64,000 nucleotides of DNA from Candidatus Omnitrophota bacterium (GTDB lineage: Bacteria; Omnitrophota; Omnitrophia; Omnitrophales; Aquincolibacteriaceae), in the NCBI GenBank assembly GCA_035352955.1, contig DAOPYQ010000004.1, positions 13,381-77,380 of the forward strand, written 5' to 3'. Every line of letters begins with the position of its first letter. Positions within the stretch are counted from its first letter, which is position 1. A program made the translations under genes and the position numbers. Shown in pieces: positions 543-16,384 of this stretch. The notes below the pieces were generated by a model that worked only from the letters and a program-made list of their open reading frames with translations, was not told where the DNA came from and made no database searches.

Positions 543-1196
543 TTATTTTTCCGCGACCCGGGCGTAAACCTTCCGGGTGACCGGAAAGCGGTCTTCATAA
601 TAGGAGGCGTGGCGCTTGCCGGTGAACTTGGCATTGTAAGTGATCACAATATCCGCTTCACGGACGTTCGCGGGAACATCAGAAAACACGTAATAAATGT
701 ATCCCTTGCCGCCGGTCTCCCAAACAAACGGGAAATTCCCTTTTCCTTTGGGAAATTGGATCCCAGGCTCGCGTCCTTTTTCCATGGCCTCATCATAAAC
801 ACGTTCCGGTTCAAAAACCCGTCCGTCCCCGCCCGCGGTACGCTCGATCAGCCGAATGCCGTCCACCTGGACCCTGGCCTTCTGTTTTTTTGTGGCCATC
901 TCAAAATCCAGACTCCCGGTAAACGCAGTGTTCCCCGCAGCGTCACCCGCCTTCCGCGCCCCCGTGATCATCCCAACCCCCATAAACACATCCTCGACGG
1001 CAACATTCAAAAGACCTTTCCCTTTCTCGAACTGATACTGGATATCCTCCACCGCCACAGCACGACCAGAAGAATGCGCCGCCAATATCCCCTGCGCCCG
1101 CAAATAATGATACCCCGCAAAAAACAACAGGACCCCCACCAACACCGGAACGATGATCCGCAGAGACTTCATAGATTCCCCCTTTTCAGCCGTCAT
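543..1196 (-). CDS. hypothetical exported/signal-anchored protein
   Basis: 217-aa ORF. The likely real start is MKSLRIIVPVLVGVLLFFAGYHY (about 1172), an N-terminal hydrophobic helix. The rest is a Gly/Lys-rich soluble domain with no recognisable catalytic motif. The overlapping + ORF 381..1295 is Arg-rich antisense noise. Confidence 0.5.
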   Translation of the reverse strand: MTAEKGESMKSLRIIVPVLVGVLLFFAGYHYLRAQGILAAHSSGRAVAVEDIQYQFEKGKGLLNVAVEDVFMGVGMITGARKAGDAAGNTAFTGSLDFEMATKKQKARVQVDGIRLIERTAGGDGRVFEPERVYDEAMEKGREPGIQFPKGKGNFPFVWETGGKGYIYYVFSDVPANVREADIVITYNAKFTGKRHASYYEDRFPVTRKVYARVAEK

Positions 1197-1364: not shown

Positions 1365-2126
1365 TCACCAAGGAAAATAATCAGATTGGATGACGGCTTT
1401 GGCCGCACGGCCCATGCAAACCTCGCCGGGTTTGGCATCGAGACAACCCTTGAAACCTTCTTCCTTATCCTGCTTAAAAGCCTGTCTGACAAGGAAATAA
1501 GGCTCCTTGCTCCCGGGACGATGCAAATTATATCCGGACTTCTTCTCCCAATACTTCAGGACCTCATCACAAAATGCGATCCCGCCGTCTGCGTCCCCAA
1601 TATAATCATAAAGATAAATAATCTTACTGGTAATGATCGGAATATAAACCGAAACATAAGCCTTCGGCGGAAGCATGTCTTTATATTTCTCGCGAAAATA
1701 CTTAATTGCTTTATAAATTGGAACTGGATCTTTTTCAGCCCTTGCTTCTCCTAATGCTTTTAACTCCAATCGATTATCTTCATATTCCTGTTTATTAGGA
1801 TTTAGTCTTAAAAACCATTCAGCCTCTTCGAGAGCTTCATTATATTTTCCCTGTAGACGATGCACTCCCATAATTCCCGCCAACGGAAGACATTTGTCGC
1901 TTTCTTTTAGGATGAATCGAGGAGCAAGTGCTTCTTGAAATTTTATGATAGCTTGGTCGTAAATACTTTTTTTAACTAGCTGGCGTCCCTCAAACTCAAT
2001 ACTACTTTGTTCCAAAGCTCGCACATCAAGTCCCGAAGAGCTTCCCGTTTTTTCTCCGCAAAATCCTTGTCTGAAGGTAACCCCGATAATTAAAACGAGA
2101 CAAACGATTTTATAGATAGCTTTCAT
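1365..2126 (-). CDS. secreted TPR-like hypothetical protein; start codon overlaps stop of giant gene 1
   Basis: The N-terminus MKAIYKIVCLVLIIGVTF is a signal peptide. TPR-like helical text follows (YNEALEEAEWFLRLNPNKQEYEDNRLELKALGEA). The ATG at 2124-2126 overlaps the TGA at 2123-2125 of the giant ORF as an ATGA junction. Confidence 0.5.
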   Translation of the reverse strand: MKAIYKIVCLVLIIGVTFRQGFCGEKTGSSSGLDVRALEQSSIEFEGRQLVKKSIYDQAIIKFQEALAPRFILKESDKCLPLAGIMGVHRLQGKYNEALEEAEWFLRLNPNKQEYEDNRLELKALGEARAEKDPVPIYKAIKYFREKYKDMLPPKAYVSVYIPIITSKIIYLYDYIGDADGGIAFCDEVLKYWEKKSGYNLHRPGSKEPYFLVRQAFKQDKEEGFKGCLDAKPGEVCMGRAAKAVIQSDYFPW

Positions 2127-5100
2127 GGATCTATCACCCAAACTTTCCGCACGGCATCATAAGAAGCCTTATTGCTATTACGAAGAAATGCATAAAGTTC
2201 GGTTGAAGAAGTACTGTGAATGATTAATTGAGTCACAAACTCATTAACGGCCGGCATATTCAAGGTAGTATTATCGCGTGTGAAGTAGTTGGAATGGCCG
2301 CAGCCTTTAATCTCGATATTAAACAACTGCTTGATCGGTTGACCATTGGCATCTCGTTGTCCTTCGACGGTGAATCCCGCCAGTTCTGAGCGGTACCCGC
2401 CAATTCCTGTCCTTACCAAGATATCATTGCTGCCGTAAACATTCACCAACATTCCGACCCCTGTGCTGAGCAATGAAGGAAGCTGTACGGTCGAAGGGAT
2501 ATTCTGCGTGATCGTTGAAACAGCCTCGATGAGCAGATCCATGGCGGGATCCACCAGCCCATGATCAAGCGCCTGCAAGATCGGATCCAGAACATACCCG
2601 ATCCCAAGCAGCCTTAGCAGATCGCCAAGCCCGTCCACTGTCTTGGCAAGCACCAATTCGGCGCTTTTCAGAATCATATCCACCGTATCTTTTGCCAAAC
2701 TGAGCGTCGCCGCTCCGATCCCCACCAGGCTCTTGAACGCGTAATTCGTCTGGGACGCCGTTTCCAAAAGCGGCAAGAATCCTCCCGAAAATCCCATGCC
2801 AACGATCGCTCTCGTCGCATCCGCAGGACGCATTTGAAAGCTCGCCGTCAGCATGGCTTTGATCTGCGAAACCAGAAATAACCGGTTTGCCGGTATTTGC
2901 GACTCCAAAGCCCAGGAAACGGCATCTTTAGTAACATCAACAATACTTCCATCATATTGTTTCAAATAAACAGGCGTTGTCAAAATATCAGACGGAAGGA
3001 TCGTACTATTATTCTTGTTCACAAGATCCACGCTAAGATTCTGGATATAATCCGGCAGAACGCCCACGCTAGTCTGCGGATTATTGATACCATTTGTCAG
3101 AACGAACAAAGGCCTTGCTCTTCCTTCGGAGGATGTGCCCACATTACCGGTTTGAATCTGAACATCAACTTTCTGCAAAATCCCGCTCTGGAACAGAAAC
3201 TGAAAACCCAGCGCCACAAAATTGAACAGTCCGGACCAAAAAGAAACCCCTGAAGGATCATGAGGATCGCTTCCCGGACCTTGAATAACGATCGGACCCC
3301 CACTTTGCTCGGAGCCACCCTCCAGGATCATCACGCCTGACTTTGAAACGGTCATATACTGCAATTGTCCGTTAACGATCTCTCCGGAGAATATCAATCC
3401 CTGGGCAAATTCCGCGATAACTTTGCCGGCCAAAAGGGCCCATTTGCCGGCGGAGTTGACGCCAAAAGTGCCGAGTTGGGTCACGCCGTTTTCTTTTTTC
3501 CCGATAAAGTTCCCGAGCAAATCGAAAAAGATCGAAGTGGAACCGTCCAACTGCTGTTCAAACCCCCGCTGCCCATCCGGAAGCGTCGTCAGGTGTCTCG
3601 AGGTATCACACAAGAGATGCGATATTCCCCCCAGACTTAAAAGTTTTTCCAAAGTGCTACGGCTGAAGATCGCCGAAGCCAAAGACTCGACGGCCCCGAT
3701 CAATCCCTTTTCCAGGATCAGGTCTCTGAAATCCCGCAGCCCCTGGAGAGCCATCTGGACGGTACTTTTCACGAAATTGAAGGGCGCCAGAATCGCGTTC
3801 TTCAGAATATCCAGGATTCCGCCGAACAGATCGTCGGCGTCCAAAACCCCGCCGATCGAGCCCAGAATATTCCCGCTTAACAAAGAACCAAAGAGAGGAT
3901 CGGAAGTTGCCCCGTCAAAGCAGAATCCGACCTGTTGAATGCCGTTGACCAGCGAATTCTTGATCGAATCCCACAAAGATCCGGTATCGAAGGGATTCGT
4001 TACATAGATCGGCGTCCCATCGTCACGATAACCGGAGACCGTCCCCGAAAAACGAGCCGTAACATTTCCAACGACCGCAGAGATCTGCAACCCCAGAAGC
4101 TTTGTCAAAACAGAACTCATACCCATCGACCGGCCGATCAATTCGAGACCGCCAAGGGTCAATTGGGAAGCCACCTGGGGAAGGATCCCGGTGAAAGCCT
4201 TGAGGTCGAGGGTATAGTTATCGAAGAAAGACCGGAGGCCGGTCATTGCGACAAGCGAAAGCGTGCCCGCGACCGGCGGCGCAAGACCCAGATGTGCCGC
4301 CAATTCCGAGACGCCCTGCACCGCAAGTTTCTCAAGCCCCGTCCGGATAAAACCCGTCCCCGTCTGCCCGATCCCGAGAAACCCGCCGCCCACAAACGCA
4401 CCTGCAAGCTGGCACAACACCGGATCAAGCCCGAACCCTTCAAGGCCCTTTGCGATGCCGAAATTCAGACCGGCCGATATCAACTGCCTCGCCGCATTCT
4501 GGGCGAACGTAAATTTATGCCCCACGACAACCCCGTTCTTCACGATCTCCTGCGCCGGATCCAGAAGAAAAATCTTCATCTTCGAGATCCCGGCACCCAA
4601 ACTTCCGAACCCTCCCGCGAAACCTCCTTTCAAAAATTCGAATCCGTCCATAATAAACCGGCCAACCGACTTCACGGACGTCCACAAAGCCTTCCCGACA
4701 TACGCGATCCCCTGCTTGACCGCGCCGAAGATCCCGTTTTGTGAAATACTGGAAAACACCATCTTGAGGCCCTGGACCACGAACTGACCAAGGCTCGCAA
4801 CGATCCCGATGATCCCCGCCACCATCGCCGCATAACCAAGGATCTTGCCAAATGTCGGGCTGAAGAACGACGCGACCACGGACGCGGCCGTCAGCACAAG
4901 GCTTGCGACAAACGCCCAGAAAATAATGTCGTCGATAATGAAAAACGATCCGCGGACTCTCATCGCCTCCTGGTCGGAAAGTTTCCGTTCCGCAAGCGCC
5001 CGGTCTTCCGAGACCATCAGATAACCGGAATTTTCTTTCACAAGCCAGATCTTGAGAAAATTTTCACGGCTGCTCGTGACGTCCTCACCGTTGGCGCCTT

Positions 5101-8100
5101 TTCCGGTCTCTTCGTAAGTGATTTCCGTTTCGGTCACGCGCTTCACCACCACAAAGTGGTCCTCCCCCACATGCGCGATCGCGCGCAGGGAACAAGCCGC
5201 CTGAGGATCCGGACAGGCGCTCCGGTAAAGCCCGAGAAGGTCCTGGTAGGAATATTTCACGGAGGCAACGTCCCGGGCATGGATCGCCGCGGCGCGATCC
5301 AAGGCGAACATTGAGATCACAAGATCGCCTTCAGAAAACTTGTGGATCGTTCCGGTCAGGATATCGATCAGGATCGTTTCCCTTCCGAGCGTTTCCATCG
5401 GAACCTCCGACCCCTGAGACGCGAGCAATTCCTTCAGCGACAGGAACGCGGACTGCCCGAAATGAAGATCGCGGCTTTCGAGCCAGGCAAGGATCCCGGC
5501 GACCTCCTCCGCGTCCAGCGCGACCGCTTCCGAATCGCCAAGATGGAGCGTGCCGAGCATTTCCGTTTTTATTTCCGGGGCCGCCGCAAGATAACTTTCC
5601 AGAAACTCCCGGACTCCCTGAACGATCACAGCTTTCTGGTTCTCCCGGGCCGTCCTCTCCGGAGAACTTTGGAGTTCGTTTTCGAGCTCCGCGATATCCA
5701 ACCGCCCGGCAACCTTCGACCGCTCAACCCATGCGCCGCGCTCCTGCGTAGACGCATCCCGGCCGAGGATCCGCCTGTAAAAATCCGTCAGGACCGGCTC
5801 CATCTCCTGATGCAGGATCTCCAGCAAAAAAGACTCTTTCTGTTCCAGGAGCTCGAGCATCTTCCCGGCCGTTGCCTGTTCGATCTCGAGTTGTTTTGCG
5901 AGCATTGCTCCGGGGATCAGCGCCAGCTGGTCCTGTCCCGTATGGATCAAATCGGCCCGCTGTCCGGCCAGCCGGTTGATCGCGTCTTGAACGCCCGGAA
6001 CCTCGTAAGTCCGTTCTTCGCAACTTTTCCAAAAAAGGATCCTGCGGCAATGCTTGACGGTCTGAAAACGCTGCGACTCGAGGCTTGAAATCTGGCTGTT
6101 GATCCCGGCGACACCGGCATCGACATTTTCCGCGACCTGGGCCCGCGCCACTTCGTCCTGCCAAGCCAACCGGTAGAGCGCATCGAACTTCGCCTGCTCG
6201 ATCTGCTCGGCGAGACGCTGGGCTTCGGACTCAAAATCTTGCCGCGACCTGACAAGCGTGATCCGGCTAAGCGTCATGTCCTCCTCGTTCCGGCAACCGG
6301 CCGCCGGACACGCATACTCATGAACGCTCAAAAGCTCGCCGCTCTCACCGAACGTTTCGCGCACTTTCCCGAATTCGTAGTACGAGCTGATGCCGTCGAG
6401 CCGCCGGGAAAAAACAATGCGGTCCTGCGCGTCATAGACCGTTACTGACTGCATGTCCCTCGCGGCCTTGAGAGGGGCATAGGCTTTCAGAAATTCAGAG
6501 TACGGTTGGCCAATGTCGTGCGCTATCTTGAGGAGCATGCCCATGCCTCCGAAAAGAGGCTCCTGTCCCGGAACAAGACTACGCGTGACCGTACTTTCGG
6601 TCACGGTCGAAAACGCATCCGCGCCGGTTCTCTCGGCTCCCTGCCCCGTCTCCAGACTTTCATTACCGAAAAAGCTCCACTTGCTGTTATGGGCAGCCGC
6701 CTCACGGATCCCACCCGCTCCGAGTCCTTCAAAAAAAGTTAGGATCTCATTTCCGGCGTTCGCAAAGGCGGGGTCCGAAACCACCGCCGCGACCGAATCA
6801 CCGGCCTTGATCCCCGCAAGAAAATGCTTGAGCCCAAGCTTGCCCCCTTCGGACGAAAAACTTCCGGAATAAACATCCCACTGGTTCGTCGCTTCTTCAT
6901 AGACTCCGACCAGAAAACCGTCCCCGCTGTGCACCGCCGTCTCAACGCCGGAGTCCATCAGTTTTTGATCCGCTCCCGCGGTCAATCCGACTTCCTTCGG
7001 GAACGGAACACCGTTAAAAGAGACTTGGCGACGCTCAAGGTCCGTATAACCGGTCACTTCATCCTGAGAATCCCGCGCATAGGTAAAAAGATGCGTAACA
7101 CCATTCGCCGCTTCCGTTTTAACAAGTTCGCCTGCGGGGTTATAGGTGAATGTCGTTTCTCCGGATTTTAAACTGAATCCAAGCCAGGTTCCGTCCTGTC
7201 CCTGAAGCAGGTCGCCCCCGGCGGTCTCCGGCAGCAAGGATTCAAAAACTTCTCCGTTCGACAACCGGCCACGGACCGGAACATAGTTTTCGATCTCGAG
7301 GATTAACCCGTCCGGAAACTGTATCTGTCCGCTCCGCACGCGCTGTTCCTCATCGAAGGTGAGATTGACGCCTTGGGTTCCGGAAGCGAGATGGATCTCC
7401 GACTTTCCGGCGCCGTCCCAAAGGATCCACGAACCGTCCGTTGATTCATACCCTTTCAGGCTCACGGCCCGCAATCCCTCCCCGGCAAAAAGTGCATTCT
7501 TGTAATCCTCCGGGGGAAGCGTCGAACCGGGAGAAAATTCCTGCACATAATCCGAATATTCGTAAAGAAAACCGTCACGCGTCATATGCCTGATCAGATT
7601 TCCGTTCGCGTCATAAAACCACGTCGTTCCCCGCTCATCCGTAACCTGGGTTTCCTTTCCGCGAAACAGGTACTGCGTGCTATTCAGCACCCGGTTGTTA
7701 TACGTAAGTTCCGCGCCTAAAAGTTCCCCGTCTTGATAGCTATAACGCGTCTCGATACGGTCCGGATTCACCGCAGTCAAAAGTTTCCCGTCCTTGAACC
7801 GGCGCTCCTCTCCGCTTCGCGCGTCCTTGAAAACCGTGATCTCTTTTCCGTCCGGATCAAATTCGAAGGACAGATCGTACTGCCGGCCGTCCGCCTGCGT
7901 GATCCTCCGGAGAGCGCCGTAGGTATAGTTCATCGTCCCGCCGCCGGAGGCTTCTCCCGGACCGAGGATCGTCCCCTGGGCCGTATTTTGTTCCGCGGAA
8001 TATTCATTCACGGTCCCGTCCGGCAAAATCACGCGGCGGACGGTCTGACCCATAAGCTGGATCTGGCTCCCGTCGAAACGGGTAAAATCGGTCAACTGAA

Positions 8101-11100
8101 GGGAGTCCCGGGACGCTCCCGAATAATGCAAAAGAGAAGGCGTGTCCAGCCATGCCACGAGCTGTTCGTAAACGATCGGATCCGCGGAAGCGACTTCAGC
8201 CCCTACCGACGCAAGCTGATCCGCCTCGATCTTGAGATTTTGCAATTCTCCGCTCGTGATCCCGAGACGGTCTTCCCACAGCGGGCGAACGATCTTGTTT
8301 ATCGCCATAAAGGAAAGATCCTTCAAATAAACCGCCCCCGTTTTCCCGATCCCATCGCCTTGGCGGATCGCCTCCAGCGTGATTTCCGTCTCAAAACCGG
8401 AGATGTCCTGAAGAGGAAAAACAAAAGTCTGGTAGTCTCGCGTCAGCGGACCCGCCGAAAAAGAGGCGACCGGATTCCCGCTGCCATTTTTTATCATCAC
8501 CAGGAACTGCTGGTTCCAATCCATCGAAGGATCTTGCTTCAGGGTCACGCCTAAAAAATCATAGCGCGACAGATCGGCCGGAACGTTCCCGTTCTTGACC
8601 GACAATCCGAGTTCCGCGCCGTATTCGCTTTTGTAACAGAATTGATAACGGGCCAGGGCCTGAACCCCGAAATCCCCTTTTTCCCCCTGCGTGACTTCGC
8701 CATCAGCGAGATCTCCCACGCTAAAACCGCTTACCGTATCCGCAACCGGCACCGCACTGAGAGGAGGTTCTTTGAGAAGATATTTTTTTTCGAGAGAGCG
8801 CTCCGGCCGCAAGAGAAATTCCGAAAGCGACATCGACCGGAACAATGTCTGCGACTGACCCGTCACAGGGTCGACAACAATTTCGTCAAAATAGACTTTG
8901 ACGGCAAGCAGATCCGTCTCGTCCCAGGATAACTGATACATCAGGTAGGCCTTACTGTTCCCCGGAACCTCGATCGCGGTGATCCTGGAATTTTCATAAA
9001 AGACCTTGACCCCGTCCCCGACATCGATCCCCTGCGCCGCGCTCTGATCGATCCTGAAGGAAGTGCCATCGTCAAGAACCGCGTCCGCCCGGAGCAGCGT
9101 CCCGTCATCGGCAAATTGCGGCGCGAGCAACGTCCCCCCGTCCGTCTGGATCGAAGATATCCCGCCGTTGGCGAAATGAACGATCGCCCCTTCTTCGACC
9201 ATGGTCTGCAATTTGCCATCCGCCCCGAAAACTTTTTTGCTGTCGTTCTCCTGAACGACAAAAGAGCGGATCTGGCCCCGCAGCGTCTTGTCGTAATAGA
9301 AACGCCCGACCTCCAGTTTGCCGCGGGCGAGCTCGATCACAAAGGTCGCGAGTCCGTCCTCAAAAAGCACGGTCCGCCCATTCTTGAAGACCCACTTCAC
9401 GAGCTGCCCGTTCAGAAAATACTGGATCCCTCCGTCCGCCAGCTTCAAAACCCCGTTGATCAGTTTCCCCGATGCGTCGATCGTAAAATTCTCGAGCACT
9501 TCCTCCCGCGTGCCCCCCTGGCCGCCCGCGACCTGGTTGGAGATCATGCCCCGGATCAAAGCCTGCATGTCGCTTCCGGTTTTTCCGAGTAAAAGCTCCC
9601 AGTCGATCGTATTCGAGCGCCGGACCTTCAAGGCCGAAAGCGGCCCGAGGAAAACATCCCCCGCGACGGGCTGTCCGTCCTCCGGCTGCATCGAAATGGC
9701 CAGTTGGGACAGGGTGTCCCCCGATTTCGGAACGGGGATCGAAACGTATTGCCACTCATGCGTCAGCGGCTCCGTCACAAAGATCTGCCCGAGTCCCTTG
9801 AATTCGAACTTCAACCGGACTTTTTCCGGGGTTTCAAAACCCAGCTTGACCGGAACAGAAAGGAAATCATATTCCGAAAAATCTTTGCCGCTATAATTCG
9901 CCCAGACCCCGACGGGCCATTCGGAAGAAATAAAATTAAAACTTAACCGGCGCACCTCCCCCGCCAAGGGATCCATCGTCGACATGCTCCGCGAAAACCC
10001 CTTGCCGGGAGTGTAAAAAACGCCCTGGGAATCCGCGCCGTCCAAAACATCCGCCTCCATCCCGGCGAGAAGCGCGGTCGCGGTCCCCGCGTGTTTCGGA
10101 GAAAGAAAATATTCCTGGAGGTTCATCCTCCTGAGATTTTCTCCCTCGCCGAATTCAATCTCGATATGGTGGAACTCCCCTCCCACCGTCAGATAGTTAT
10201 AGATATGTCCTTCGCCGAACTCCGGGTCGGAAAGGACGGGGACGAATGCCGGTTGTTTGACAAGTCCCGCGGCAAGTCCGTCCGGGCTCGCGCTGGCGCC
10301 GTTGTAGAGCCGCGCCGCGCTTCCGCCAAAATCAGGCGGCTCGGGATTCGCCGCGATCAGGGGATTCAGCTTGAAACTCATTCCCCCATACAAGGAATCG
10401 AAGGACTGATGCGCATCTGTGATCCGGAGATAACGATCAAAATAATCCTGACTCGTCCGGAGCAGCGATAGAATGAAAGCGGCCTGATCCACCCCGTAGT
10501 ATTGATCCGAATACACGGGCGCGATACCGTCCCCGGACTGGATGGCGTCGACAAAGCCCGCGGAGGTACGCATCCCGGGAAATGCCGCTTCAAGATTTTT
10601 GAGAAACTGCAGTGAATAATGCGGAGCGAGCGGGAACGCCGCAGCCGTCCCGTAAATGGAACCGATATCCGTTTTCAGCACATCGTCGGTCTCCGCGCCC
10701 GCGGGCAGACCGATCTTTCCATCGTACCCCTCGCCGGGAACATCGCCGGCCGAAAGAAGCCCCGGAGTCCCGTGAGCCGCCGCGAATTCCGCTTGCGCGT
10801 ACAGAAAATTCCGGAGAGCCGCGTTAAACTCCGGATACTGGGTTTCGTCGACATGGATGAGGGGCCAGAACATCTGAAAAGCGCCACCGTCATACGGAAC
10901 CGCCAGGTCCACCGCATCCCCCCGGGAAGTTTCAAAAGGACGGATCGCCAGATCAAGGTTTTGCAGAGCTTCGGCATACTGCGGGTATTTCGTAACAAGC
11001 CATACCATACCGGTGCGGAATTCATTAAAGACGCGGTCGATATAGTAGTCGCCGACCGGCTGCCAAACACCCGTCTGCGGATCGCGCGCATAAGCTCCTC

Positions 11101-14100
11101 GAAAACGTTTTTGCACGGGATCATAAAATCGGGCATATCCCGCTTCCTGAACCGCCAAAATCGCGTTGGCCGATGCAAGGATCTGGCTCCGGGAAGCCGA
11201 AAATTCCGGAGCCACCGGAACATCCTCTAGAGCCCCAATGACGCTCGCGAGACTCACGGAAAGATTTAACGTATCCCCGAACCCTACCTGATTCGAAAAA
11301 CTCTCGTACCGGAAAGCTATCCGCTTCTGCCCGGTCGGCTTCCCGTAAGCATCCAGAATATTTTCCTCATACGGAATGATCTTGAAAAACGCGACCATCC
11401 CATTCCAACCGGCCTGCTGCTGAACCTTCTGGTAGGTTTCGAGAAGCTCCTGGAGCTTCGCAAAAGCATCCGAACGGGACATTTTTGAGGTTGTGTAATC
11501 ACCGGCCGCGATCGCCGCCAGAATTTCGGCCCAAAAACCGATCAGCGTCGCCTGGCTGTAATCAGACTGTTGCGACACAGACCCGATGAAATTATCCAGC
11601 GGCAGTCCGGTCCCTTCGTGGATCCCTTTTCCGTTCATGAAATAGTCAAGCTGGAACTCGACCAGTTCGTTCCGGTACGATGCCTCCGCCGCCGTCAGCG
11701 GTTCCGCGGGAACCGCGGGTTCGGGAGGAGGAACCGTTAAAGTCTCCCCTGAAAATTCGAGGATCTGCCCCGAAGCCGTGACTTGCTTGACGATCTTGTC
11801 GTTCTCGATCAGGTACTGCGTTCCGTCATCAAAAAACAACTCCCCCGAAAAAATGCTTCCGTTCGCGTCCACGGTCAGGGAGCGGAGCTGAGCCCCGGTC
11901 AATTGTATAAGAGGAACAAAAAATCGCCCCTCGAGAAGCTCGGGCGTTTCGACAAAATCCGCGGGAACGCCCTTGTTCTGCGTATATCTCACAGGCTTCC
12001 CATACTCAAAATCCACCCGCCCTCCGCCCGGGATCTCGACCGAGACAAGCGCGGTGGTACGTTCCGTGACGCCCTGCTCGTTCTTTCCTTCGCTCACGTA
12101 ATAAGTCCTGCCATCCTCCATGGAGGTCAAACTCTCATTGTTGCCGGGATAAACGGTCACATTCCCTTCGGCGTCTTCCCTCCGCACGATCTTCCGGGTC
12201 TCGCAAATCTCTTTCGATCCGTCCGCATAAGTCCGCGTAAAATTCATCAGCGTGCTGCCATACCAGTAAAGATCCTCCAGCACGCTTCCATCATTCAAGC
12301 GGACTTGCTGAAGCGTTGAATCTGATACCCGGAAAAACGTTCCGTCACTCATCCGGATCCCGCTAAGTTGTCCCGCGGCGTCATAGACCTGCTCAAAATC
12401 GGCTGCCTCCGACGCAAAAGAAAAGAGGTCCTGTCCGCCGGGGATCTGGCTTTGAATATTCAAAAAATCTCCCGCTTGATTGAGAAACGACACGAGGGAT
12501 CCGTTCTCGAGCGCAAGGATCTCCCCACGGATCGAAATCACTTTTTTCATATCGCCCGCGGGACCGTATTCGATCGTTCGGGAAAGCTCTTGTTCCAGAG
12601 TCTTTTGGACGGAAGGGTAGTTCGCAAGGTCGGCCAGAACCGTCTCAAGAGGGACCGCCGCGCTTATTCCGGCGCACTCGACGGAAACCAGCTCCGAACG
12701 GTAGCCCTGCAACGTACTTCCCTGGTTCAAAATAGAGACTTCATAGTGAAAGACATTTCCGGCCGTATCGGTATAAGTTTCCAGAAAACCGTCCTGATAG
12801 AAGATGGCCGGCCCGTCGGTTTTCCTGATCCACACCGGCCTTCCCTTTTCATCATAGAGGCTCGTGACACCTTCTTCGAAACTAAGCATGGAGAGAACCT
12901 CTCCCGCATCGTCAAGCTGGTACGCGAACCGAATTTTCTTACCGTCCGCCGTCAGGACGTACGCGGCGGTACCGTCCCCGTTATAAACGGTTTTTTCACC
13001 GGCCTGTGACAAACGGTACACCGCTTTTCCATTCTGATAAAGAAGCCGGTCCCCGTTGGCAAAAAGCAGTACGCCGCCCAACAGATTCTGTTCTTCATCG
13101 AACAGCGGAGAAAAGAGCGTGAATTCATCTTTTTTTTCGATCGCGAAAAGCGTGCTGCCCTGATACTTAAGGACTAATCCGTTGGCGGCGGTCAGGGAGA
13201 CAAGATTCTGAGGAAGCCCGGACACCGACGGCATCGCGGGAAGCGGCGCTTCCGATTGGTTCAACATCACGGAATATTCGGAAAAAGTCTGCAAGGTTCC
13301 GGCCGTAGCGCAGACCATGAGCCGGTTCTCGCCCGGCTGAAGCCGCCAAAACTCCTGATGCTCGACCCCTTCCACGGAATAACGGAAAAGATAGTAAGGA
13401 TCCGCCGTACTGCCGTCGGAGAGGAATTGGACTGTGGGACGGATCGGTGCCGTGACAAAACGGATAACATCCGAAAAACCGGAAATATTCCCGGCCTCGT
13501 CCCGGACCTGGCAAAGAACTTCTTTACTTCCCTCGCCTTCAGGAAGCAGGACAACTTTCATGGCATTGTACGTTTCCCAGTCCGTCCAATGCTCCCCGCC
13601 GTCCAATGAAAATCGAAGATCCTTTAGTGGCACCGCATCGGCTACCGCAACATCAAGCACAACCGCGCGCGACCCGGTTTCTTCGTCCCCGTCATTGATC
13701 CGGAGCAACCCCGCGGGCGGCGTCTGATCCAGGGTCACGGTCACATTTTTCACTGCCGTGTTACCAAAAATATCCGCGGCTTCGAGCGTAAAAACGTTTC
13801 GCCCTTCGGTCAGCTGCCGGCTTTCTTTTTTTTCAATGCCCTCCACGGAATAGACAAGTTCAAAATCCGGCCGGTTGACAAAAAGCGGCCCGGAAAGGAC
13901 CTCGATCCCGGGCGGCGTGGTATCAAGCACCGCACGACCGTCGTTATAAAACTCCTCAGTCGACCCTTCCTCATAAAAGATCCGGAAACCGTCAAGCGTC
14001 GCGTCTCCCATGATAGGCTTTACAAAGTTGGCGACCCCGACCGAGTCCGCGCGCGCAAGAGCCACGTCTAACGTCTTCGAGATATAAAAACCTCGCGCGA

Positions 14101-15703
14101 ATGCCGGAGAAGTTTCGGGAACCGAATAATTCCCCCGGGCGGGATCAAGAAATTTCGGATCCTCAAGCCTGTTCCCGTTCGTCCAACCTTCCCCTGTCAC
14201 AGATCCGATCGCCGAGGGCAGCTGCAGGGCCGAACCATCGTCTTGGTCGCCGTTATGGAACAAGCTATTTTCTTCAACGCGAGTGGTCCCAGCCAGAGCT
14301 TCCAGGATGGGTTGCTCCGTCTGATGGGCGACAATATTGCTTTGAACCACAGAGATGCCTGTTCCCCCAAGGACGATTCCCTTCCGGCCTTGAAAGCTCT
14401 CTGCCAACACAACGCGGTAGGACCTTGAGGTCACGCTGAGGGGATGAGGGGCCGTCGTGGATCCGTCGTCCAGCCAGAAAGTATTCCCCGCCGGGTTGGC
14501 CGGAAAAAGTTGATCTTCAAAAACTCCGGGAGACACCTGAACACGCGACATCCTCCAATGCTCCCCATCGTCATCGGAATACTCAATATGGTAGGAGTAG
14601 GCCCCCTGCGGATCCTGAATCTCGATCTGGAACCCACGGTTGCGGACATAGCGGAATCCTTTGACCCGGAGATCTTCTTCGACCTCGTAACCGGTAATCG
14701 TGTTATAGCGGATCACCGTACGGCTGCCGGACGTTTCGATCGCAACATTGTTCCCGAAAAAGATATTCTGTTCGATCAGAATATCTTCCGCACTCGATGA
14801 GACTTGTACCCCGGCACCCAGGTTCATCTTGATCCGGCTATCACGTATTTTAACGCCGCTCCCCTCCACCCTTACGGCAGCGCTGATCTGATCCACCGCG
14901 TCTCTTCCTCCTGTCACGGTCAGGCCTTCAATGAGATTGCTCCCAAGGGCCCGAATCACAGGGCTGCCCTTCAGGTAATCACCATGGACAACCGTGCGTT
15001 CCGGATCTTCCCCCTTTAGAACGATACCCTGCCTCAGCGTCAAATGCTCGTGATAAACCCCTTCGTGCAGAACCACGGTATCTCCGGTTTGGGACTGATC
15101 GAGAGTGCTCTGCACGGAAGCTCCGGCATAGACGTGACGGATCGCTTTTCCGTCGGCTTGAAGTTCTTTGATAAGCCGACCGTCGCCATCATAGATTTTG
15201 TCCGGATCGGCTGACGCCATTACACTCGCCGGAGAAAGCGGAGAATTGGAGGCAAGAAAATCAGTGGCGGTTAATGCGGAGGGCGTTTCCCCCGATTCCT
15301 TTGTCACGACCGGACAGTCAGTGACGGGAAGTGCCGGCTGCCCCGAAGCGGCGATGGGATCCTTCACCACTGTCCCCTCAGCAACCGCCATCTGGGATGT
15401 AACAAATGTCAAAAGTGTAATGGCCGCGACAACGCGCAAAACTGTTTTTCGGAATCCATGGTAAGGACAGGGTATTTTTTCTTTAACGGAGAGTTTTTCA
15501 TTCTCGGAAGCGGCGCTAAACCATTTAAAATGATCGCTTATCTCAAGGCGTCTTGTGATCTCATCCCTCGGAAGGTTGAGAACCCGCGCGATCGTGAAGA
15601 TCGCGTCCCGCTTCAGCCCTTGTTTTTTGTTCTCCGCCGCGCTGCCCTTCATGCGAGGGGTCCCGTTTTTCCAATGAGCCGTGTCATGCGTCCTCCATGT
15701 CAA
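2123..15703 (-). CDS. giant (4526 aa) membrane-anchored surface protein with beta-helix, YD/Rhs-type repeats, glycoside-hydrolase-like helical domain, C-proximal TM cluster and 880-aa Gly/Leu-rich tail
   Basis: A 13.6 kb uninterrupted ORF cannot arise by chance. The track start is a TTG at 15703. The next in-frame ATG is at about 15652 (MKGSAAENKK). A hydrophobic anchor VLRVVAAITLLTFVTSQMAVA lies about 90 aa in. The product call is based on motif families only. Confidence 0.85.
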   Translation of the reverse strand: MTWRTHDTAHWKNGTPRMKGSAAENKKQGLKRDAIFTIARVLNLPRDEITRRLEISDHFKWFSAASENEKLSVKEKIPCPYHGFRKTVLRVVAAITLLTFVTSQMAVAEGTVVKDPIAASGQPALPVTDCPVVTKESGETPSALTATDFLASNSPLSPASVMASADPDKIYDGDGRLIKELQADGKAIRHVYAGASVQSTLDQSQTGDTVVLHEGVYHEHLTLRQGIVLKGEDPERTVVHGDYLKGSPVIRALGSNLIEGLTVTGGRDAVDQISAAVRVEGSGVKIRDSRIKMNLGAGVQVSSSAEDILIEQNIFFGNNVAIETSGSRTVIRYNTITGYEVEEDLRVKGFRYVRNRGFQIEIQDPQGAYSYHIEYSDDDGEHWRMSRVQVSPGVFEDQLFPANPAGNTFWLDDGSTTAPHPLSVTSRSYRVVLAESFQGRKGIVLGGTGISVVQSNIVAHQTEQPILEALAGTTRVEENSLFHNGDQDDGSALQLPSAIGSVTGEGWTNGNRLEDPKFLDPARGNYSVPETSPAFARGFYISKTLDVALARADSVGVANFVKPIMGDATLDGFRIFYEEGSTEEFYNDGRAVLDTTPPGIEVLSGPLFVNRPDFELVYSVEGIEKKESRQLTEGRNVFTLEAADIFGNTAVKNVTVTLDQTPPAGLLRINDGDEETGSRAVVLDVAVADAVPLKDLRFSLDGGEHWTDWETYNAMKVVLLPEGEGSKEVLCQVRDEAGNISGFSDVIRFVTAPIRPTVQFLSDGSTADPYYLFRYSVEGVEHQEFWRLQPGENRLMVCATAGTLQTFSEYSVMLNQSEAPLPAMPSVSGLPQNLVSLTAANGLVLKYQGSTLFAIEKKDEFTLFSPLFDEEQNLLGGVLLFANGDRLLYQNGKAVYRLSQAGEKTVYNGDGTAAYVLTADGKKIRFAYQLDDAGEVLSMLSFEEGVTSLYDEKGRPVWIRKTDGPAIFYQDGFLETYTDTAGNVFHYEVSILNQGSTLQGYRSELVSVECAGISAAVPLETVLADLANYPSVQKTLEQELSRTIEYGPAGDMKKVISIRGEILALENGSLVSFLNQAGDFLNIQSQIPGGQDLFSFASEAADFEQVYDAAGQLSGIRMSDGTFFRVSDSTLQQVRLNDGSVLEDLYWYGSTLMNFTRTYADGSKEICETRKIVRREDAEGNVTVYPGNNESLTSMEDGRTYYVSEGKNEQGVTERTTALVSVEIPGGGRVDFEYGKPVRYTQNKGVPADFVETPELLEGRFFVPLIQLTGAQLRSLTVDANGSIFSGELFFDDGTQYLIENDKIVKQVTASGQILEFSGETLTVPPPEPAVPAEPLTAAEASYRNELVEFQLDYFMNGKGIHEGTGLPLDNFIGSVSQQSDYSQATLIGFWAEILAAIAAGDYTTSKMSRSDAFAKLQELLETYQKVQQQAGWNGMVAFFKIIPYEENILDAYGKPTGQKRIAFRYESFSNQVGFGDTLNLSVSLASVIGALEDVPVAPEFSASRSQILASANAILAVQEAGYARFYDPVQKRFRGAYARDPQTGVWQPVGDYYIDRVFNEFRTGMVWLVTKYPQYAEALQNLDLAIRPFETSRGDAVDLAVPYDGGAFQMFWPLIHVDETQYPEFNAALRNFLYAQAEFAAAHGTPGLLSAGDVPGEGYDGKIGLPAGAETDDVLKTDIGSIYGTAAAFPLAPHYSLQFLKNLEAAFPGMRTSAGFVDAIQSGDGIAPVYSDQYYGVDQAAFILSLLRTSQDYFDRYLRITDAHQSFDSLYGGMSFKLNPLIAANPEPPDFGGSAARLYNGASASPDGLAAGLVKQPAFVPVLSDPEFGEGHIYNYLTVGGEFHHIEIEFGEGENLRRMNLQEYFLSPKHAGTATALLAGMEADVLDGADSQGVFYTPGKGFSRSMSTMDPLAGEVRRLSFNFISSEWPVGVWANYSGKDFSEYDFLSVPVKLGFETPEKVRLKFEFKGLGQIFVTEPLTHEWQYVSIPVPKSGDTLSQLAISMQPEDGQPVAGDVFLGPLSALKVRRSNTIDWELLLGKTGSDMQALIRGMISNQVAGGQGGTREEVLENFTIDASGKLINGVLKLADGGIQYFLNGQLVKWVFKNGRTVLFEDGLATFVIELARGKLEVGRFYYDKTLRGQIRSFVVQENDSKKVFGADGKLQTMVEEGAIVHFANGGISSIQTDGGTLLAPQFADDGTLLRADAVLDDGTSFRIDQSAAQGIDVGDGVKVFYENSRITAIEVPGNSKAYLMYQLSWDETDLLAVKVYFDEIVVDPVTGQSQTLFRSMSLSEFLLRPERSLEKKYLLKEPPLSAVPVADTVSGFSVGDLADGEVTQGEKGDFGVQALARYQFCYKSEYGAELGLSVKNGNVPADLSRYDFLGVTLKQDPSMDWNQQFLVMIKNGSGNPVASFSAGPLTRDYQTFVFPLQDISGFETEITLEAIRQGDGIGKTGAVYLKDLSFMAINKIVRPLWEDRLGITSGELQNLKIEADQLASVGAEVASADPIVYEQLVAWLDTPSLLHYSGASRDSLQLTDFTRFDGSQIQLMGQTVRRVILPDGTVNEYSAEQNTAQGTILGPGEASGGGTMNYTYGALRRITQADGRQYDLSFEFDPDGKEITVFKDARSGEERRFKDGKLLTAVNPDRIETRYSYQDGELLGAELTYNNRVLNSTQYLFRGKETQVTDERGTTWFYDANGNLIRHMTRDGFLYEYSDYVQEFSPGSTLPPEDYKNALFAGEGLRAVSLKGYESTDGSWILWDGAGKSEIHLASGTQGVNLTFDEEQRVRSGQIQFPDGLILEIENYVPVRGRLSNGEVFESLLPETAGGDLLQGQDGTWLGFSLKSGETTFTYNPAGELVKTEAANGVTHLFTYARDSQDEVTGYTDLERRQVSFNGVPFPKEVGLTAGADQKLMDSGVETAVHSGDGFLVGVYEEATNQWDVYSGSFSSEGGKLGLKHFLAGIKAGDSVAAVVSDPAFANAGNEILTFFEGLGAGGIREAAAHNSKWSFFGNESLETGQGAERTGADAFSTVTESTVTRSLVPGQEPLFGGMGMLLKIAHDIGQPYSEFLKAYAPLKAARDMQSVTVYDAQDRIVFSRRLDGISSYYEFGKVRETFGESGELLSVHEYACPAAGCRNEEDMTLSRITLVRSRQDFESEAQRLAEQIEQAKFDALYRLAWQDEVARAQVAENVDAGVAGINSQISSLESQRFQTVKHCRRILFWKSCEERTYEVPGVQDAINRLAGQRADLIHTGQDQLALIPGAMLAKQLEIEQATAGKMLELLEQKESFLLEILHQEMEPVLTDFYRRILGRDASTQERGAWVERSKVAGRLDIAELENELQSSPERTARENQKAVIVQGVREFLESYLAAAPEIKTEMLGTLHLGDSEAVALDAEEVAGILAWLESRDLHFGQSAFLSLKELLASQGSEVPMETLGRETILIDILTGTIHKFSEGDLVISMFALDRAAAIHARDVASVKYSYQDLLGLYRSACPDPQAACSLRAIAHVGEDHFVVVKRVTETEITYEETGKGANGEDVTSSRENFLKIWLVKENSGYLMVSEDRALAERKLSDQEAMRVRGSFFIIDDIIFWAFVASLVLTAASVVASFFSPTFGKILGYAAMVAGIIGIVASLGQFVVQGLKMVFSSISQNGIFGAVKQGIAYVGKALWTSVKSVGRFIMDGFEFLKGGFAGGFGSLGAGISKMKIFLLDPAQEIVKNGVVVGHKFTFAQNAARQLISAGLNFGIAKGLEGFGLDPVLCQLAGAFVGGGFLGIGQTGTGFIRTGLEKLAVQGVSELAAHLGLAPPVAGTLSLVAMTGLRSFFDNYTLDLKAFTGILPQVASQLTLGGLELIGRSMGMSSVLTKLLGLQISAVVGNVTARFSGTVSGYRDDGTPIYVTNPFDTGSLWDSIKNSLVNGIQQVGFCFDGATSDPLFGSLLSGNILGSIGGVLDADDLFGGILDILKNAILAPFNFVKSTVQMALQGLRDFRDLILEKGLIGAVESLASAIFSRSTLEKLLSLGGISHLLCDTSRHLTTLPDGQRGFEQQLDGSTSIFFDLLGNFIGKKENGVTQLGTFGVNSAGKWALLAGKVIAEFAQGLIFSGEIVNGQLQYMTVSKSGVMILEGGSEQSGGPIVIQGPGSDPHDPSGVSFWSGLFNFVALGFQFLFQSGILQKVDVQIQTGNVGTSSEGRARPLFVLTNGINNPQTSVGVLPDYIQNLSVDLVNKNNSTILPSDILTTPVYLKQYDGSIVDVTKDAVSWALESQIPANRLFLVSQIKAMLTASFQMRPADATRAIVGMGFSGGFLPLLETASQTNYAFKSLVGIGAATLSLAKDTVDMILKSAELVLAKTVDGLGDLLRLLGIGYVLDPILQALDHGLVDPAMDLLIEAVSTITQNIPSTVQLPSLLSTGVGMLVNVYGSNDILVRTGIGGYRSELAGFTVEGQRDANGQPIKQLFNIEIKGCGHSNYFTRDNTTLNMPAVNEFVTQLIIHSTSSTELYAFLRNSNKASYDAVRKVWVIDP
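4780..4960 (-). other. cluster of 2-3 transmembrane helices about 3585 aa into giant 1
   Basis: FFIIDDIIFWAFVASLVLTAASVVASFFSPTFGKILGYAAMVAGIIGIVASLGQFVVQGL. Confidence 0.55.
7450..7950 (-). other. Rhs/YD-repeat block inside giant 1
   Basis: YDLSFEFDPDGKEITVFKDARSGEERRFKDGKLLTAVNPDRIETRYSYQDGELLGAELTYNNRVLNSTQYLFRGKETQVTDERGTTWFYDANGNLIRHMTRDGFLYEYS. These are classic YD-repeat strings (YDANGNL, TRDG..YEY). Further YD-like blocks lie at about 12700-13100 and 8850-9010. Confidence 0.55.
10500..11600 (-). other. alpha-helical (alpha/alpha)6-barrel glycoside-hydrolase-like domain inside giant 1 (tentative)
   Basis: GWNGMVAFFKIIPYEEN...DYYIDRVFNEFRTGMVWLVTKYPQYAEALQNLDLAIRPFE...DGGAFQMFWPLIHVDETQYPEFNAALRNFLYAQAEFAAAHG. 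This resembles glucoamylase-like or DUF3131-like glycoside-hydrolase folds. The family is not secure. Confidence 0.3.
14650..15100 (-). other. right-handed parallel beta-helix (pectate-lyase-like) repeats inside giant 1
   Basis: DTVVLHEGVYHEHLTLRQGIVLKGEDPERTVVHGDYLKGSPVIRALGSNLIEGLTVTGGRDAVDQISAAVRVEGSGVKIRDSRIKMNLGAGVQVSSSAEDILIEQNIFFGNNVAIETSGSRTVIRYNTITG. This shows the periodic hydrophobic/Gly/Asn pattern of PbH1 repeats. Confidence 0.5.
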
Positions 15704-16324: not shown

Positions 16325-16347
16325 AACATGTCTTTCTGAAACATGTT
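16325..16347 (+). promoter_or_regulatory. perfect 7-9-7 palindrome AACATGT-N9-ACATGTT, candidate repressor operator for the fadL-family gene
   Basis: Read directly as aacatgtctttctgaaacatgtt. It lies 38-60 nt upstream of the ATG at 16385. A good -10-like GATAAT at 16304-16309 sits just upstream, so the dyad would overlap the +1 region. The surrounding 16100-16320 stretch is strongly AT-rich. Confidence 0.35.
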
Positions 16348-16384
16348 GCGGCAATCCGCAACTCAACCCGGGAGCAGATTGACC

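Follow-up and report, generated by a model that had tools for sequence, protein, structure and literature searches.

The stretch of DNA analysed here, 64,000 nucleotides (nt) from a Candidatus Omnitrophota bacterium and referred to throughout as the window, carries a giant open reading frame (ORF), giant 1, which an earlier note made from the letters alone had described as an exported, multi-domain, Rhs-like protein of host or cell interaction. As a description this is supported, and on balance we regard giant 1 as a Sec-exported RHS-type polymorphic toxin in which a new processing and membrane module precedes the toxic tip. Several features had been missed. The protein has a toxin-type catalytic domain at its end, on the predicted structure an alpha/beta-hydrolase with a Ser-Asp-His triad; a C39-type peptidase and a double-glycine-type site occupy exactly the place of the Rhs self-cleavage motif; and the tip of the giant gene, together with the TPR gene directly downstream, behaves as a swappable cassette of lower GC content. 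The relevant features, all on the minus strand and with residues numbered in amino acids (aa) of giant 1, are as follows.

2123..15703, minus strand: whole giant 1 ORF, 4,526 aa (stop codon included in the coordinates), or 4,509 aa when started at the ATG of residue 18
4994..5506, minus strand: C39-type (papain-fold) peptidase, aa 3400-3570, PF03412 in orthologs
4946..4984, minus strand: double-glycine-leader-like motif, aa 3574-3586, K-L-S-D-Q-E-A-M-R-V-R-G-S followed by FF, with counts from 52 relatives
4766..4945, minus strand: hydrophobic helical hairpin, aa 3587-3646, two helices of transmembrane (TM) length with the loop SPTFGK, from Kyte-Doolittle hydropathy
4034..4765, minus strand: conserved Gly-rich, semi-hydrophobic segment of about 245 residues, aa 3647-3890, 16% Gly
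3161..4033, minus strand: variable intermediate segment, aa 3891-4181, over which ortholog identity collapses
2126..3160, minus strand: C-terminal alpha/beta-hydrolase, aa 4182-4526, from AlphaFold2 and Foldseek
Within the hydrolase, minus strand: oxyanion-loop motif Asn4204-Gly4205, Ser4306 (nt 2786-2788), Asp4427 (nt 2423-2425) and His4470 (nt 2294-2296)
1365..2126, minus strand: coupled downstream gene, 253 aa, with a signal peptide, then a pair of TPR motifs, then a C-terminal part that is unique

Relatives were collected with a pattern scan that took the conserved C-terminal region as its seed and covered each GTDB species by a single genome; it gave 20 loci, 11 of them in genomes titled Candidatus Omnitrophota or Omnitrophica. 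At 13 of the 20 loci the homolog is 3,868-4,768 aa long, colinear with giant 1 and 40-56% identical to it over the full length, and a set of 14 orthologs is the basis for all ortholog counts of Pfam matches and residue invariance given below. An exhaustive HMMER profile search with aa 3560-4526 (E <=1e-3) returned 353 clusters at 50% identity; most of the full-length matches listed are 2.5-7 thousand aa (kaa) in length, with the match at or near the C-terminus. A word-indexed database search returned nothing with a profile of 18 mixed C-termini, and the Gly-rich query found five matches only. When the best 151 of the relatives were scanned with hidden Markov models (HMMs) built from regions of the giant 1 family, the order YD blocks, (helical region), C39-like domain, TM/Gly segment and terminal domain was found to recur; the modules for the beta-helix, the Ig-like domains and the glycosidase are optional, and the last was found in 9/151. 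Judged from these sequences and the names attached to them, the family appears so far to occur only in Omnitrophota and in unnamed metagenome-assembled genomes, and it is conserved, large and undescribed.

The AlphaFold2 model of the last 345 aa, built from a 22-sequence alignment, has a predicted local distance difference test score (pLDDT) of 86 and a predicted template modelling score of 0.84. All 50 of the Foldseek matches listed have the alpha/beta-hydrolase fold, and they are led by bacterial family-I lipases; the top matches are 1TAH, 9G8U, 2ES4 and 1EX9 together with monoacylglycerol lipases (E about 4e-5, probability 1.0), with low TM-scores (0.3-0.4). In the model the Asn-Gly pair comes after strand one, Ser4306 sits at a strand-helix elbow, Asp4427 and His4470 follow the next two core strands, and a helical insert, which is a candidate lid, lies between the strand after the Ser and the Asp strand. 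Sequence and model topology together place Ser, Asp and His in the canonical order and at the expected strand positions. Across 53 relatives, Gly4205, Ser4306-Gly4307, Pro4311 and His4470 are each conserved in 100%, Asn4208 and Gly4424 in 98%, Asn4204 in 96% and Asp4427 in 79%. No family match was obtained from Pfam for the 22 hydrolase members at E-values up to 1, nor from a PDB sequence-profile search with the hydrolase, and the family is therefore undescribed at the sequence level. From the modelled fold, the effector most likely acts on membrane or envelope esters as a lipase or esterase.

As in the Tle/Tli pairs of the type VI secretion system (T6SS), as well as in the family-I lipase/Lif pairs, a Ser-Asp-His hydrolase is here paired with a secreted helical-repeat protein encoded next to it, and the family-I lipases are its nearest solved folds by Foldseek. 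There is, however, no sequence tie to Pfam hydrolase families, to Tli or to Lif, and the nucleophile elbow of the giant 1 family, G-F/Y-S-G-G or, in tips of type B (see below), S-H-S-G-N, differs from that of Tle and family-I lipases. Unlike the cargo lipases of the T6SS and the type II secretion system (T2SS), the hydrolase forms the end of a giant Sec-exported protein.

The hydrolase domain was detected by HMM in at least 101 of the 151 relatives scanned, and 41 tails in which it was not detected fall into 32 clusters. The count of 101 is a lower bound because several of the tails missed by the HMM are, by eye, divergent Ser-His hydrolases; Ser-His motifs could be picked out in the C-terminal 320 aa of P0124 (AAHSLGT), P0053 (AYSGDGDP ... 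GVDHLDY), P0101 and P0090, so that tips of lipase type are commoner, and also more diverse, than the HMM count shows. In one ortholog (L012) the hydrolase is replaced by a different tip, identified by Pfam as Ntox10 (E 4.6e-24), and the tail of one further relative gave a weak Pre-toxin-TG match. Matches to 'Serglycin' in a Pfam scan of joined tails were discarded as an artefact of the GS linkers placed between the tails.

Conservation along giant 1 falls abruptly at about aa 3850-3900, where identity to four orthologs (L006, L008, L014 and L017) drops from 50-70% to 12-30%. The closest homolog, L017, is 56% identical to giant 1 overall, and the best BLAST segment within the last 620 aa is just 26% identical; L006 is 53% identical overall, and its last 620 aa give a marginal match of 73 residues (E 0.001). 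The intermediate segment and the hydrolase vary independently, as L014 has the same hydrolase type as giant 1 and does not share aa 3900-4150. AlphaFold2 applied to aa 3900-4526 with a 6-sequence alignment gave no usable model (mean pLDDT 33).

The gene that follows changes with the tip. It had been noted before as a translationally coupled, secreted TPR-like partner, and this is borne out: the giant 1 stop codon overlaps its start as ATGA at 2123-2126, it encodes a signal peptide, and its TPR pair matches consensus-TPR structures (E 2.4e-9). Comparison of 18 loci revealed at least five tip types. Type A is found in giant 1, L002, L003, L014 and, more distantly, L013, all of which have a type A partner, and type B at ten loci, with a type B partner at all seven where the downstream gene could be read; L012, L016 and L017 each have a unique tip followed by a unique downstream gene of their own. 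Thus, the type of the downstream gene co-varies with the type of the tip, and the ATGA or a near overlap is conserved across loci. Partners of types A and B have only the TPR pair in common (hhalign 97%). Base composition, including that at third codon positions (GC3), also changes here:

Conserved part of the giant gene: GC 56.0%, GC3 65%
Variable segment, aa 3891-4181: GC 51.5%, GC3 60.5%
Hydrolase: GC 48.4%, GC3 53%
TPR gene: GC 41.4%, GC3 37%
Next gene downstream (543-1196): GC 54%, GC3 62%

The stepwise fall in GC content is limited to 1365-4033, which covers the TPR gene and the variable end of giant 1. A tip and immunity cassette of lower GC content is a classical feature of Rhs systems. 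The TPR partner most likely serves as an immunity protein in the periplasm; the alternative is a dedicated foldase. It is followed by two genes (one of 217 aa at 543-1196, minus strand, and one of about 285 aa; L022 3931-5494) that have no Pfam match, and each of the three contigs with this locus keeps them.

The C39-type domain lies well ahead of the tip. PF03412 matches 10 of the 14 orthologs (E up to 0.05, best 2e-5), the aligned part being the His-containing half only, and giant 1 itself scores 15 bits against a cut-off of 22; a PDB sequence-profile search with the helical/C39 region found nothing significant. The candidate triad consists of Ser3418 (nt 5450-5452), His3516 (nt 5156-5158) and Glu3532 (nt 5108-5110). 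The catalytic Cys that is canonical for C39 is not kept: among 84 relatives, 80 have Ser and four have Cys at position 3418 (motif LHFGxSAF), none lacks His3516, and the residue at 3532 is a Glu in 51 cases and an Asp in 33. The interchange of Ser and Cys argues for a nucleophile at 3418 which, with the invariant His and the acid, would make up the pattern of a catalytic triad. The spacing of 16 residues from His to acid is that of His101 and Asp117 in the C39 protease LahT, in which the triad is Cys27, His101 and Asp117 (PMC6363468).

About 50 residues downstream on the same chain, directly behind the domain and right before the first TM helix, is a motif resembling a double-glycine leader. 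In 52 relatives, position -12 is L/I/M in 50, -11 is S/T in 41, -8 is E/Q in 40, -4 is I/V in 51, -2 is G and -1 is A/S/G in all 52, and +1 is F in 49; most of the remaining relatives deviate at -3, usually with Lys for Arg. Known C39 substrates end in GG, GA or GS and have Leu-12, Glu-8, Leu-7 and Val-4 (PMC6363468), and five of the six leader-consensus positions compared agree (-12, -8, -4, -2 and -1). These conserved positions suggest that the C39-type peptidase probably cuts its own chain between Ser3586 and Phe3587.

Similarity to PF03412, the order of nucleophile, His and acid, and the acid at His+16 are shared with the C39 domains of PCAT/AMS transporters (ComA, LahT and PCAT1). With the leaders of their substrates the motif shares a hydrophobic residue at both -12 and -4, a Glu at -8, a Gly in position -2 and an Ala or Ser in -1. 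In contrast to those domains, the nucleophile is Ser in 95% of the relatives, -7 is Ala/Thr, and the domain of giant 1 would be exported and lies within its own substrate (in cis) rather than at the cytoplasmic face of an ABC exporter, with a TM helix and not a bacteriocin after the site.

The two helices that follow account for a TM cluster previously placed at 4780-4960. They are strongly hydrophobic (Kyte-Doolittle maxima of 2.36 and 2.13 in giant 1, and a family-averaged maximum of 2.48), the loop between them is invariant as SPxxGK, and SPxxGxxxGYAA is invariant in the hairpin region. The Gly-rich segment behind them is 50-74% identical to that of close orthologs, and the peaks of its family hydropathy, 1.05-1.33, are below the TM level; the Gly-rich/TM segment had no Pfam match and no significant PDB sequence-profile match. 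The chain beyond the hairpin had been taken as a single Gly-rich domain of 880 aa, and of this a Gly-rich character at aa ~3647-3890 stands, the last 345 aa having the alpha/beta-hydrolase fold. The accompanying suggestion that this tail is a pore-forming or translocating domain, or a second anchor, may likewise apply to aa 3587-3890 only and not to the whole. A signal peptide and two TM helices would put both large parts of the protein outside the cytoplasm, in agreement with a secreted partner.

The remainder of giant 1 comprises the N-terminus and a long ectodomain, made up as follows.

15440..15703, minus strand: N-terminal extension, aa 1-88, not conserved and possibly untranslated
15377..15439, minus strand: hydrophobic export signal, aa 89-109, (L/M)RVVAAITLLTFVTSQMAVA followed by EG, from hydropathy
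14693..15112, minus strand: right-handed parallel beta-helix, aa 198-337 (Pfam Beta_helix E 6.7e-9, NosD 1.9e-6, TIGR04247 4e-11)
13214..13906, minus strand: bacterial Ig-like domains, aa ~600-830 (Big_13)
11669..13216, minus strand: YD-repeat-like beta block 1, aa 830-1345, with weak RHS_repeat/TIGR01643 matches and a weak match to Rhs 7Q97
10124..11668, minus strand: (alpha/alpha)6 glycoside hydrolase (GH) of the beta-1,2-glucanase clan, nearest GH192/GH144, aa ~1346-1860
8027..10123, minus strand: unassigned beta-rich modules with an internal duplication, aa 1861-2559, including a YD-like block at aa ~2060-2260, from self-matches of region HMMs
6944..8026, minus strand: YD/RHS repeat block 2, aa 2560-2920, with a canonical YDANGNL at aa 2697
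6665..6886, minus strand: ILEI/FAM3-like domain, aa 2940-3013 (PF15711)
5507..6436, minus strand: conserved helical region, aa 3090-3399, containing QIEQAKFDALYRLAWQDEV, the candidate coiled coil of the earlier note, and the motif YRRxLGRDxS

The N-terminus had been described as a cytoplasmic, HTH-like tail of 90 aa followed by a signal anchor, and neither description is upheld. The first 88 aa match no family in Pfam or NCBIfam, and none of the six homologs whose 5' end is complete has the tail; these start directly at a short Sec-type signal peptide ending A/G-x-A. The tail is either a lineage-specific extension or untranslated, the latter suggested by an in-frame TTG at nt 15439-15437. The hydrophobic segment, ending QMAVA before EG, resembles a cleavable signal peptide, as in the homologs, rather than an anchor.

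Most of the modules predicted before for the ectodomain were recovered. The pectate-lyase-like beta-helix has significant Pfam support, and the conserved region around it reaches to about aa 600. For the Ig-like segments, Big_13 is weak in giant 1 (E 0.006) and matches 11 of the 14 orthologs (best E 3.7e-10), and in distant relatives the module occurs in tandem in up to 21 copies. The YD/Rhs repeats, including the canonical YDANGNL, are supported by RHS_repeat matches in all 14 orthologs (best E 2.3e-13) and by TIGR01643, which is above its cut-off in giant 1; weak profile matches to the Rhs cocoon structures 7Q97 (E 0.0026), Tre23 7PQ5 and Tse5 8CP6 were also seen, and YD block 1 was found again in 68 of the 151 relatives. 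The predicted glucoamylase-like helical domain can be narrowed to a GH192-like one. PF10091 matches 12 of the 14 orthologs, giant 1 itself being below the Pfam gathering score (23 against 27 bits), and the family profile matches PDB 8XUJ (EeSGL1) with an E-value of 7.7e-14 (0.023 for the N-terminal helices). EeSGL1 is a characterised GH192 endo-beta-1,2-glucanase with Glu221 as the general acid and Asp149 as the candidate general base (PMC12102758). In the 8XUJ chain these are D150 and E222, with the published spacing of 72 and an offset of one, and they align to Asp1477 (nt 11273-11275) and Glu1561 (nt 11021-11023), candidate catalytic residues that are invariant in the 14 orthologs. The highest conservation in giant 1 also lies in this domain (aa 1601-1700, 75% mean identity in 100-aa windows). 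A domain of beta-1,2-glucanase type is probable from the profile similarity and the aligned acid and base; it differs from GH192/GH144 enzymes such as EeSGL1 in sitting mid-chain in a 4.5-kaa protein, and its activity is predicted. Among the natural substrates of beta-1,2-glucanases are glucans of Gram-negative bacteria, both periplasmic and cyclic.

Several further regions of the ectodomain came to light. A pair of beta-rich modules that follows the glycosidase (aa ~1870-2096) is repeated at aa ~2297-2535, on the other side of the YD-like block. A PDB sequence-profile search of aa 1900-2260 gave nothing significant and Pfam scans of aa 1900-2570 in the 14 orthologs nothing consistent; the duplicated modules could be carbohydrate-binding. 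The ILEI/FAM3-like domain, absent from the earlier note, was matched by PF15711 in all 14 orthologs (best E 2.4e-8), with weak FAM3A/C matches in the PDB. The helical region at aa 3090-3399 is 57-60% identical across orthologs and has no significant PDB or Pfam match; DUF4214, a name considered for the motif YRRxLGRDxS, was not reported by Pfam and was dropped.

Taken together, these parts suggest the following course of events. The N-terminal signal peptide would export the giant chain, and the ectodomain of about 3,300 aa (beta-helix, Ig-like, YD/RHS, GH192-like and ILEI-like modules) would offer adhesion and attack on glycans. The C39-type peptidase, with its Ser (rarely Cys), His and Glu/Asp, and the double-glycine-like site would stand in for the Rhs core, the peptidase cutting its own chain behind Gly3585-Ser3586. 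This would release a fragment of about 940 aa that starts with the hairpin and the Gly-rich, membrane-interacting segment, may anchor or insert in a membrane, and ends in the putative effector, a sequence-orphan alpha/beta-hydrolase acting as a lipase or esterase on esters of the membrane or envelope. Together with the coupled secreted TPR protein, as immunity protein or foldase, the effector tip would form an exchangeable cassette. In this scheme the domain identities, the conserved catalytic residues, the joint variation of tip and partner and the break in GC content are observed, whereas self-cleavage, membrane topology, lipid substrate, target cell and immunity are inferred. A broader claim, which we hold to be possible without favouring it, is that the family is an unrecognised class of self-processing polymorphic toxins of at least 353 clusters, in which a Ser-type C39 peptidase cuts at an in-built double-glycine site and so takes over from the Rhs aspartyl autoprotease, the released fragment inserts into the target membrane by its glycine-rich hairpin module, and each lipase-type toxin of a new family is neutralised by a co-evolving periplasmic TPR immunity protein.

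The closest described class is that of the RHS-repeat polymorphic toxins exported by Sec/T2SS, to which Ntox10 was assigned when it was defined by Zhang, Aravind and co-workers in 2012 (PMC3482391). The signal peptide, the central RHS/YD and Ig-type repeats, the position of the processing peptidase, the variable C-terminal toxin, the cognate gene directly downstream and, in one ortholog, Ntox10 itself are all shared with that class, and alpha/beta-hydrolase toxins of lipase type are among the toxin classes listed there (PMC3482391). Giant 1 is, however, much larger and has embedded glycosidase and lectin-like modules; its Ser-type C39 peptidase with a site in cis is outside the listed releasing peptidases (caspase, HINT, MCF1-SHE, subtilisin and ZU5, with PrsW added in a figure; PMC3482391); a conserved TM hairpin and a Gly-rich segment precede the toxin; the hydrolase is outside the Pfam toxin families; and the partner belongs to no known Imm family. 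Hence, what is new relative to the described class is the Ser-type C39 peptidase with its double-glycine-type site in cis, the conserved hairpin/Gly-rich module before the toxin, and the orphan hydrolase family.

A number of observations weigh against a polymorphic toxin. A Sec-exported chain with two strong TM helices should remain in the inner membrane of its producer, and the preferred model has its main gap in the route that a TM-tethered effector would take to another cell; the charges at the hairpin (four K/R against three D/E before TM1, six K/R against two D/E after TM2) do not make for a simple stop-transfer topology, insertion from one side of a membrane suiting them as well as a stop-transfer anchor. 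Self-cleavage we infer from conserved residues and the motif, in which Ala/Thr takes the place of the consensus Leu at -7. C39-like domains may be non-catalytic binding modules, as in HlyB, and Ser is unusual as the nucleophile in a C39-type fold. Much of the 'polymorphism' of the tips is fast divergence of one fold and not an exchange of unrelated cassettes, because most relatives share a homologous hydrolase. Orphan toxin/immunity cassettes, which are common in polymorphic toxin systems and not obligatory, were not found in the 64-kb window, where the hydrolase HMM detected the giant ORF only and the two partner HMMs the known gene only. The TPR partner matched no known immunity family and, as the top Foldseek lipases need a foldase encoded downstream, the role of a chaperone fits as well as that of immunity. 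Finally, for nine of the 20 source genomes the title gives only 'uncultured bacterium', though all of the named ones are Omnitrophota.

All of these parts would be kept on another reading, in which giant 1 is not a toxin and is instead an ectoenzyme or adhesin, a membrane-anchored coat or attachment protein that stays on the producer, an episymbiotic cell, with the GH192-like domain digesting host-surface glycans and the lipase digesting lipids for nutrients, and the TPR protein serving as a Lif/LipB-like foldase. This is the alternative that we take most seriously, and we think it unlikely rather than remote. It would explain why two of the best Foldseek matches are lipase-foldase complexes (9G8U and 2ES4), why the partner is secreted, helical and translationally coupled, why TM helices would hold the chain in the producer membrane and why the GH domain is the best conserved part; passages of the literature on Omnitrophota giant proteins also lean towards adhesion and the degradation of surface polymers. 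It leaves unexplained the swapping, or far faster divergence, of tip and partner, their different GC content, the replacement of the hydrolase by Ntox10 in one ortholog, and a conserved peptidase and cleavage-type motif just ahead of the hairpin, and the partner has no sequence match to the lipase foldases in the PDB. A pore or channel formed by the hairpin and a glycine-zipper-like segment, with the terminal domain as an accessory, is improbable as the main activity. The hairpin with its 6-residue loop, the charged flanks on both of its sides (compatible with insertion from one side) and the roughly 245 aa of conserved Gly-rich, semi-hydrophobic sequence, better conserved than the catalytic tip, would suit a pore. 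Against this, aa 3587-3890 match no pore-forming family or structure, the structure prediction that covered part of the region had a mean pLDDT of 33, and the catalytic residues of the terminal domain are kept in 53 relatives, so the domain is not a degenerate accessory.

A canonical Rhs/Tc cocoon toxin, with a closed YD shell and release by the Rhs aspartyl autoprotease, is largely excluded, and we give it very little probability. Significant YD/RHS repeats in all orthologs and the weak matches to the cocoon structures speak for it, and giant 1 shares with the Rhs and TcB-TcC toxins (7Q97, Tre23 7PQ5 and Tse5 8CP6) the YD repeats, a C-terminal toxic tip and a tip cassette of lower GC content, self-cleavage being only proposed for giant 1. 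However, as had been remarked from the letters, the DPxGL autoproteolysis motif is missing: a regular expression for PxxxxDPxGL found none in giant 1, the sole match of DPxG[LWIV] type being DPSGV at aa 4149 with no upstream Pro, and no Rhs-associated-core model in NCBIfam or Pfam matched. The YD blocks are separated by a 500-aa glycosidase and further modules, and the last of them is followed by about 1,600 aa that include the peptidase, the TM helices and the 345-aa enzyme. A cargo of that size seems too large for an Rhs cocoon of known dimensions. No PAAR, VgrG or TcA partner was present among the neighbouring genes scanned. An artefact, whether a chimeric assembly or genes fused by sequencing errors, carries practically no weight with us. 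Though one related genome has the ortholog split into ORFs of 2,256 aa and 1,378 aa, the frame is uninterrupted over 2123..15703 (4,526 codons counted from the first TTG), and the single giant ORF first noted there is real. At least ten public contigs from JGI, ENA and NCBI, among them a JGI contig of 164 kb (sample 3300010352) as well as an ENA assembly and NCBI GCA_035403665.1, carry an identical TPR protein downstream, and the giant gene on them is called with 4,509 aa, starting at the ATG of residue 18. The 13 colinear long homologs align over the whole protein, with the 5' end complete in six.

The split ortholog (L001/L009; GCA_964610145.1, contig CAZSVD010000060.1, 109-11061) has the start of its second ORF just ahead of the conserved helical region and the TPR partner next to it; this is due either to a frameshift in sequencing or to a system that naturally comes as two genes. 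The neighbours of giant 1 include the housekeeping genes gpsA, dnaJ, hrcA, ftsH and uvrA, as well as a FadL-type outer-membrane protein, and on account of these neighbours the DNA is chromosomal DNA of a diderm bacterium. The last of these neighbours, at 16343-17779 on the plus strand, encodes an outer-membrane channel of the FadL/TodX family for long-chain fatty acids or hydrophobic compounds (Pfam E 1.5e-39); it is divergent from and directly upstream of giant 1, a suggestive neighbour for a protein with a lipase-like end. A second giant ORF, giant 2 (22368-53870, minus strand), encodes 10,500 aa; a hydrophobic signal stands at its N-terminus, and further hydrophobic clusters lie at aa ~644-880, ~5891-5920 and ~7931-7951. 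The two had been put together as one arsenal, and this is not supported: none of the giant 1 region HMMs matches giant 2, so that on its sequence it is a giant protein of another kind.

Giant genes characterise Omnitrophota, as they do other ultra-small, host-dependent bacteria. Passages of the surveys of Omnitrophota giant proteins, including the Archaeovorin and Dockerin types (West-Roberts 2023; Nielsen and Lui 2026), describe proteins that are poorly conserved, mostly unannotated and of unknown function, with adhesion and cell-wall degradation proposed. Giant 1 shares with them, as far as those passages go, the phylum, a proposed role at the surface of host or prey, C39 peptidase domains, RHS-like beta structures and TM helices; it differs in being under the survey cut-offs of 10-30 kaa or more and in having neither SecA-like nor dockerin domains. 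The same passages make no mention of a family of 4-5 kaa, of the cassette logic, of a Ser-type C39 peptidase with its site, or of a hydrolase tip. The giant 1 family is an exception among giant genes: it is conserved and widespread and splits into parts that are testable. If the model holds, giant proteins of Omnitrophota would be tied to the logic of polymorphic toxins, a new releasing peptidase (Ser-type C39, acting in cis at a double-glycine site) and a new family of lipase-like toxins would be added to those known, and small expressible fragments would be at hand for work on organisms that cannot be grown in pure culture. Were the self-processing toxin class to prove true, it would be the first mechanistic, testable account of one class of giant proteins in these ultra-small predatory or episymbiotic bacteria.

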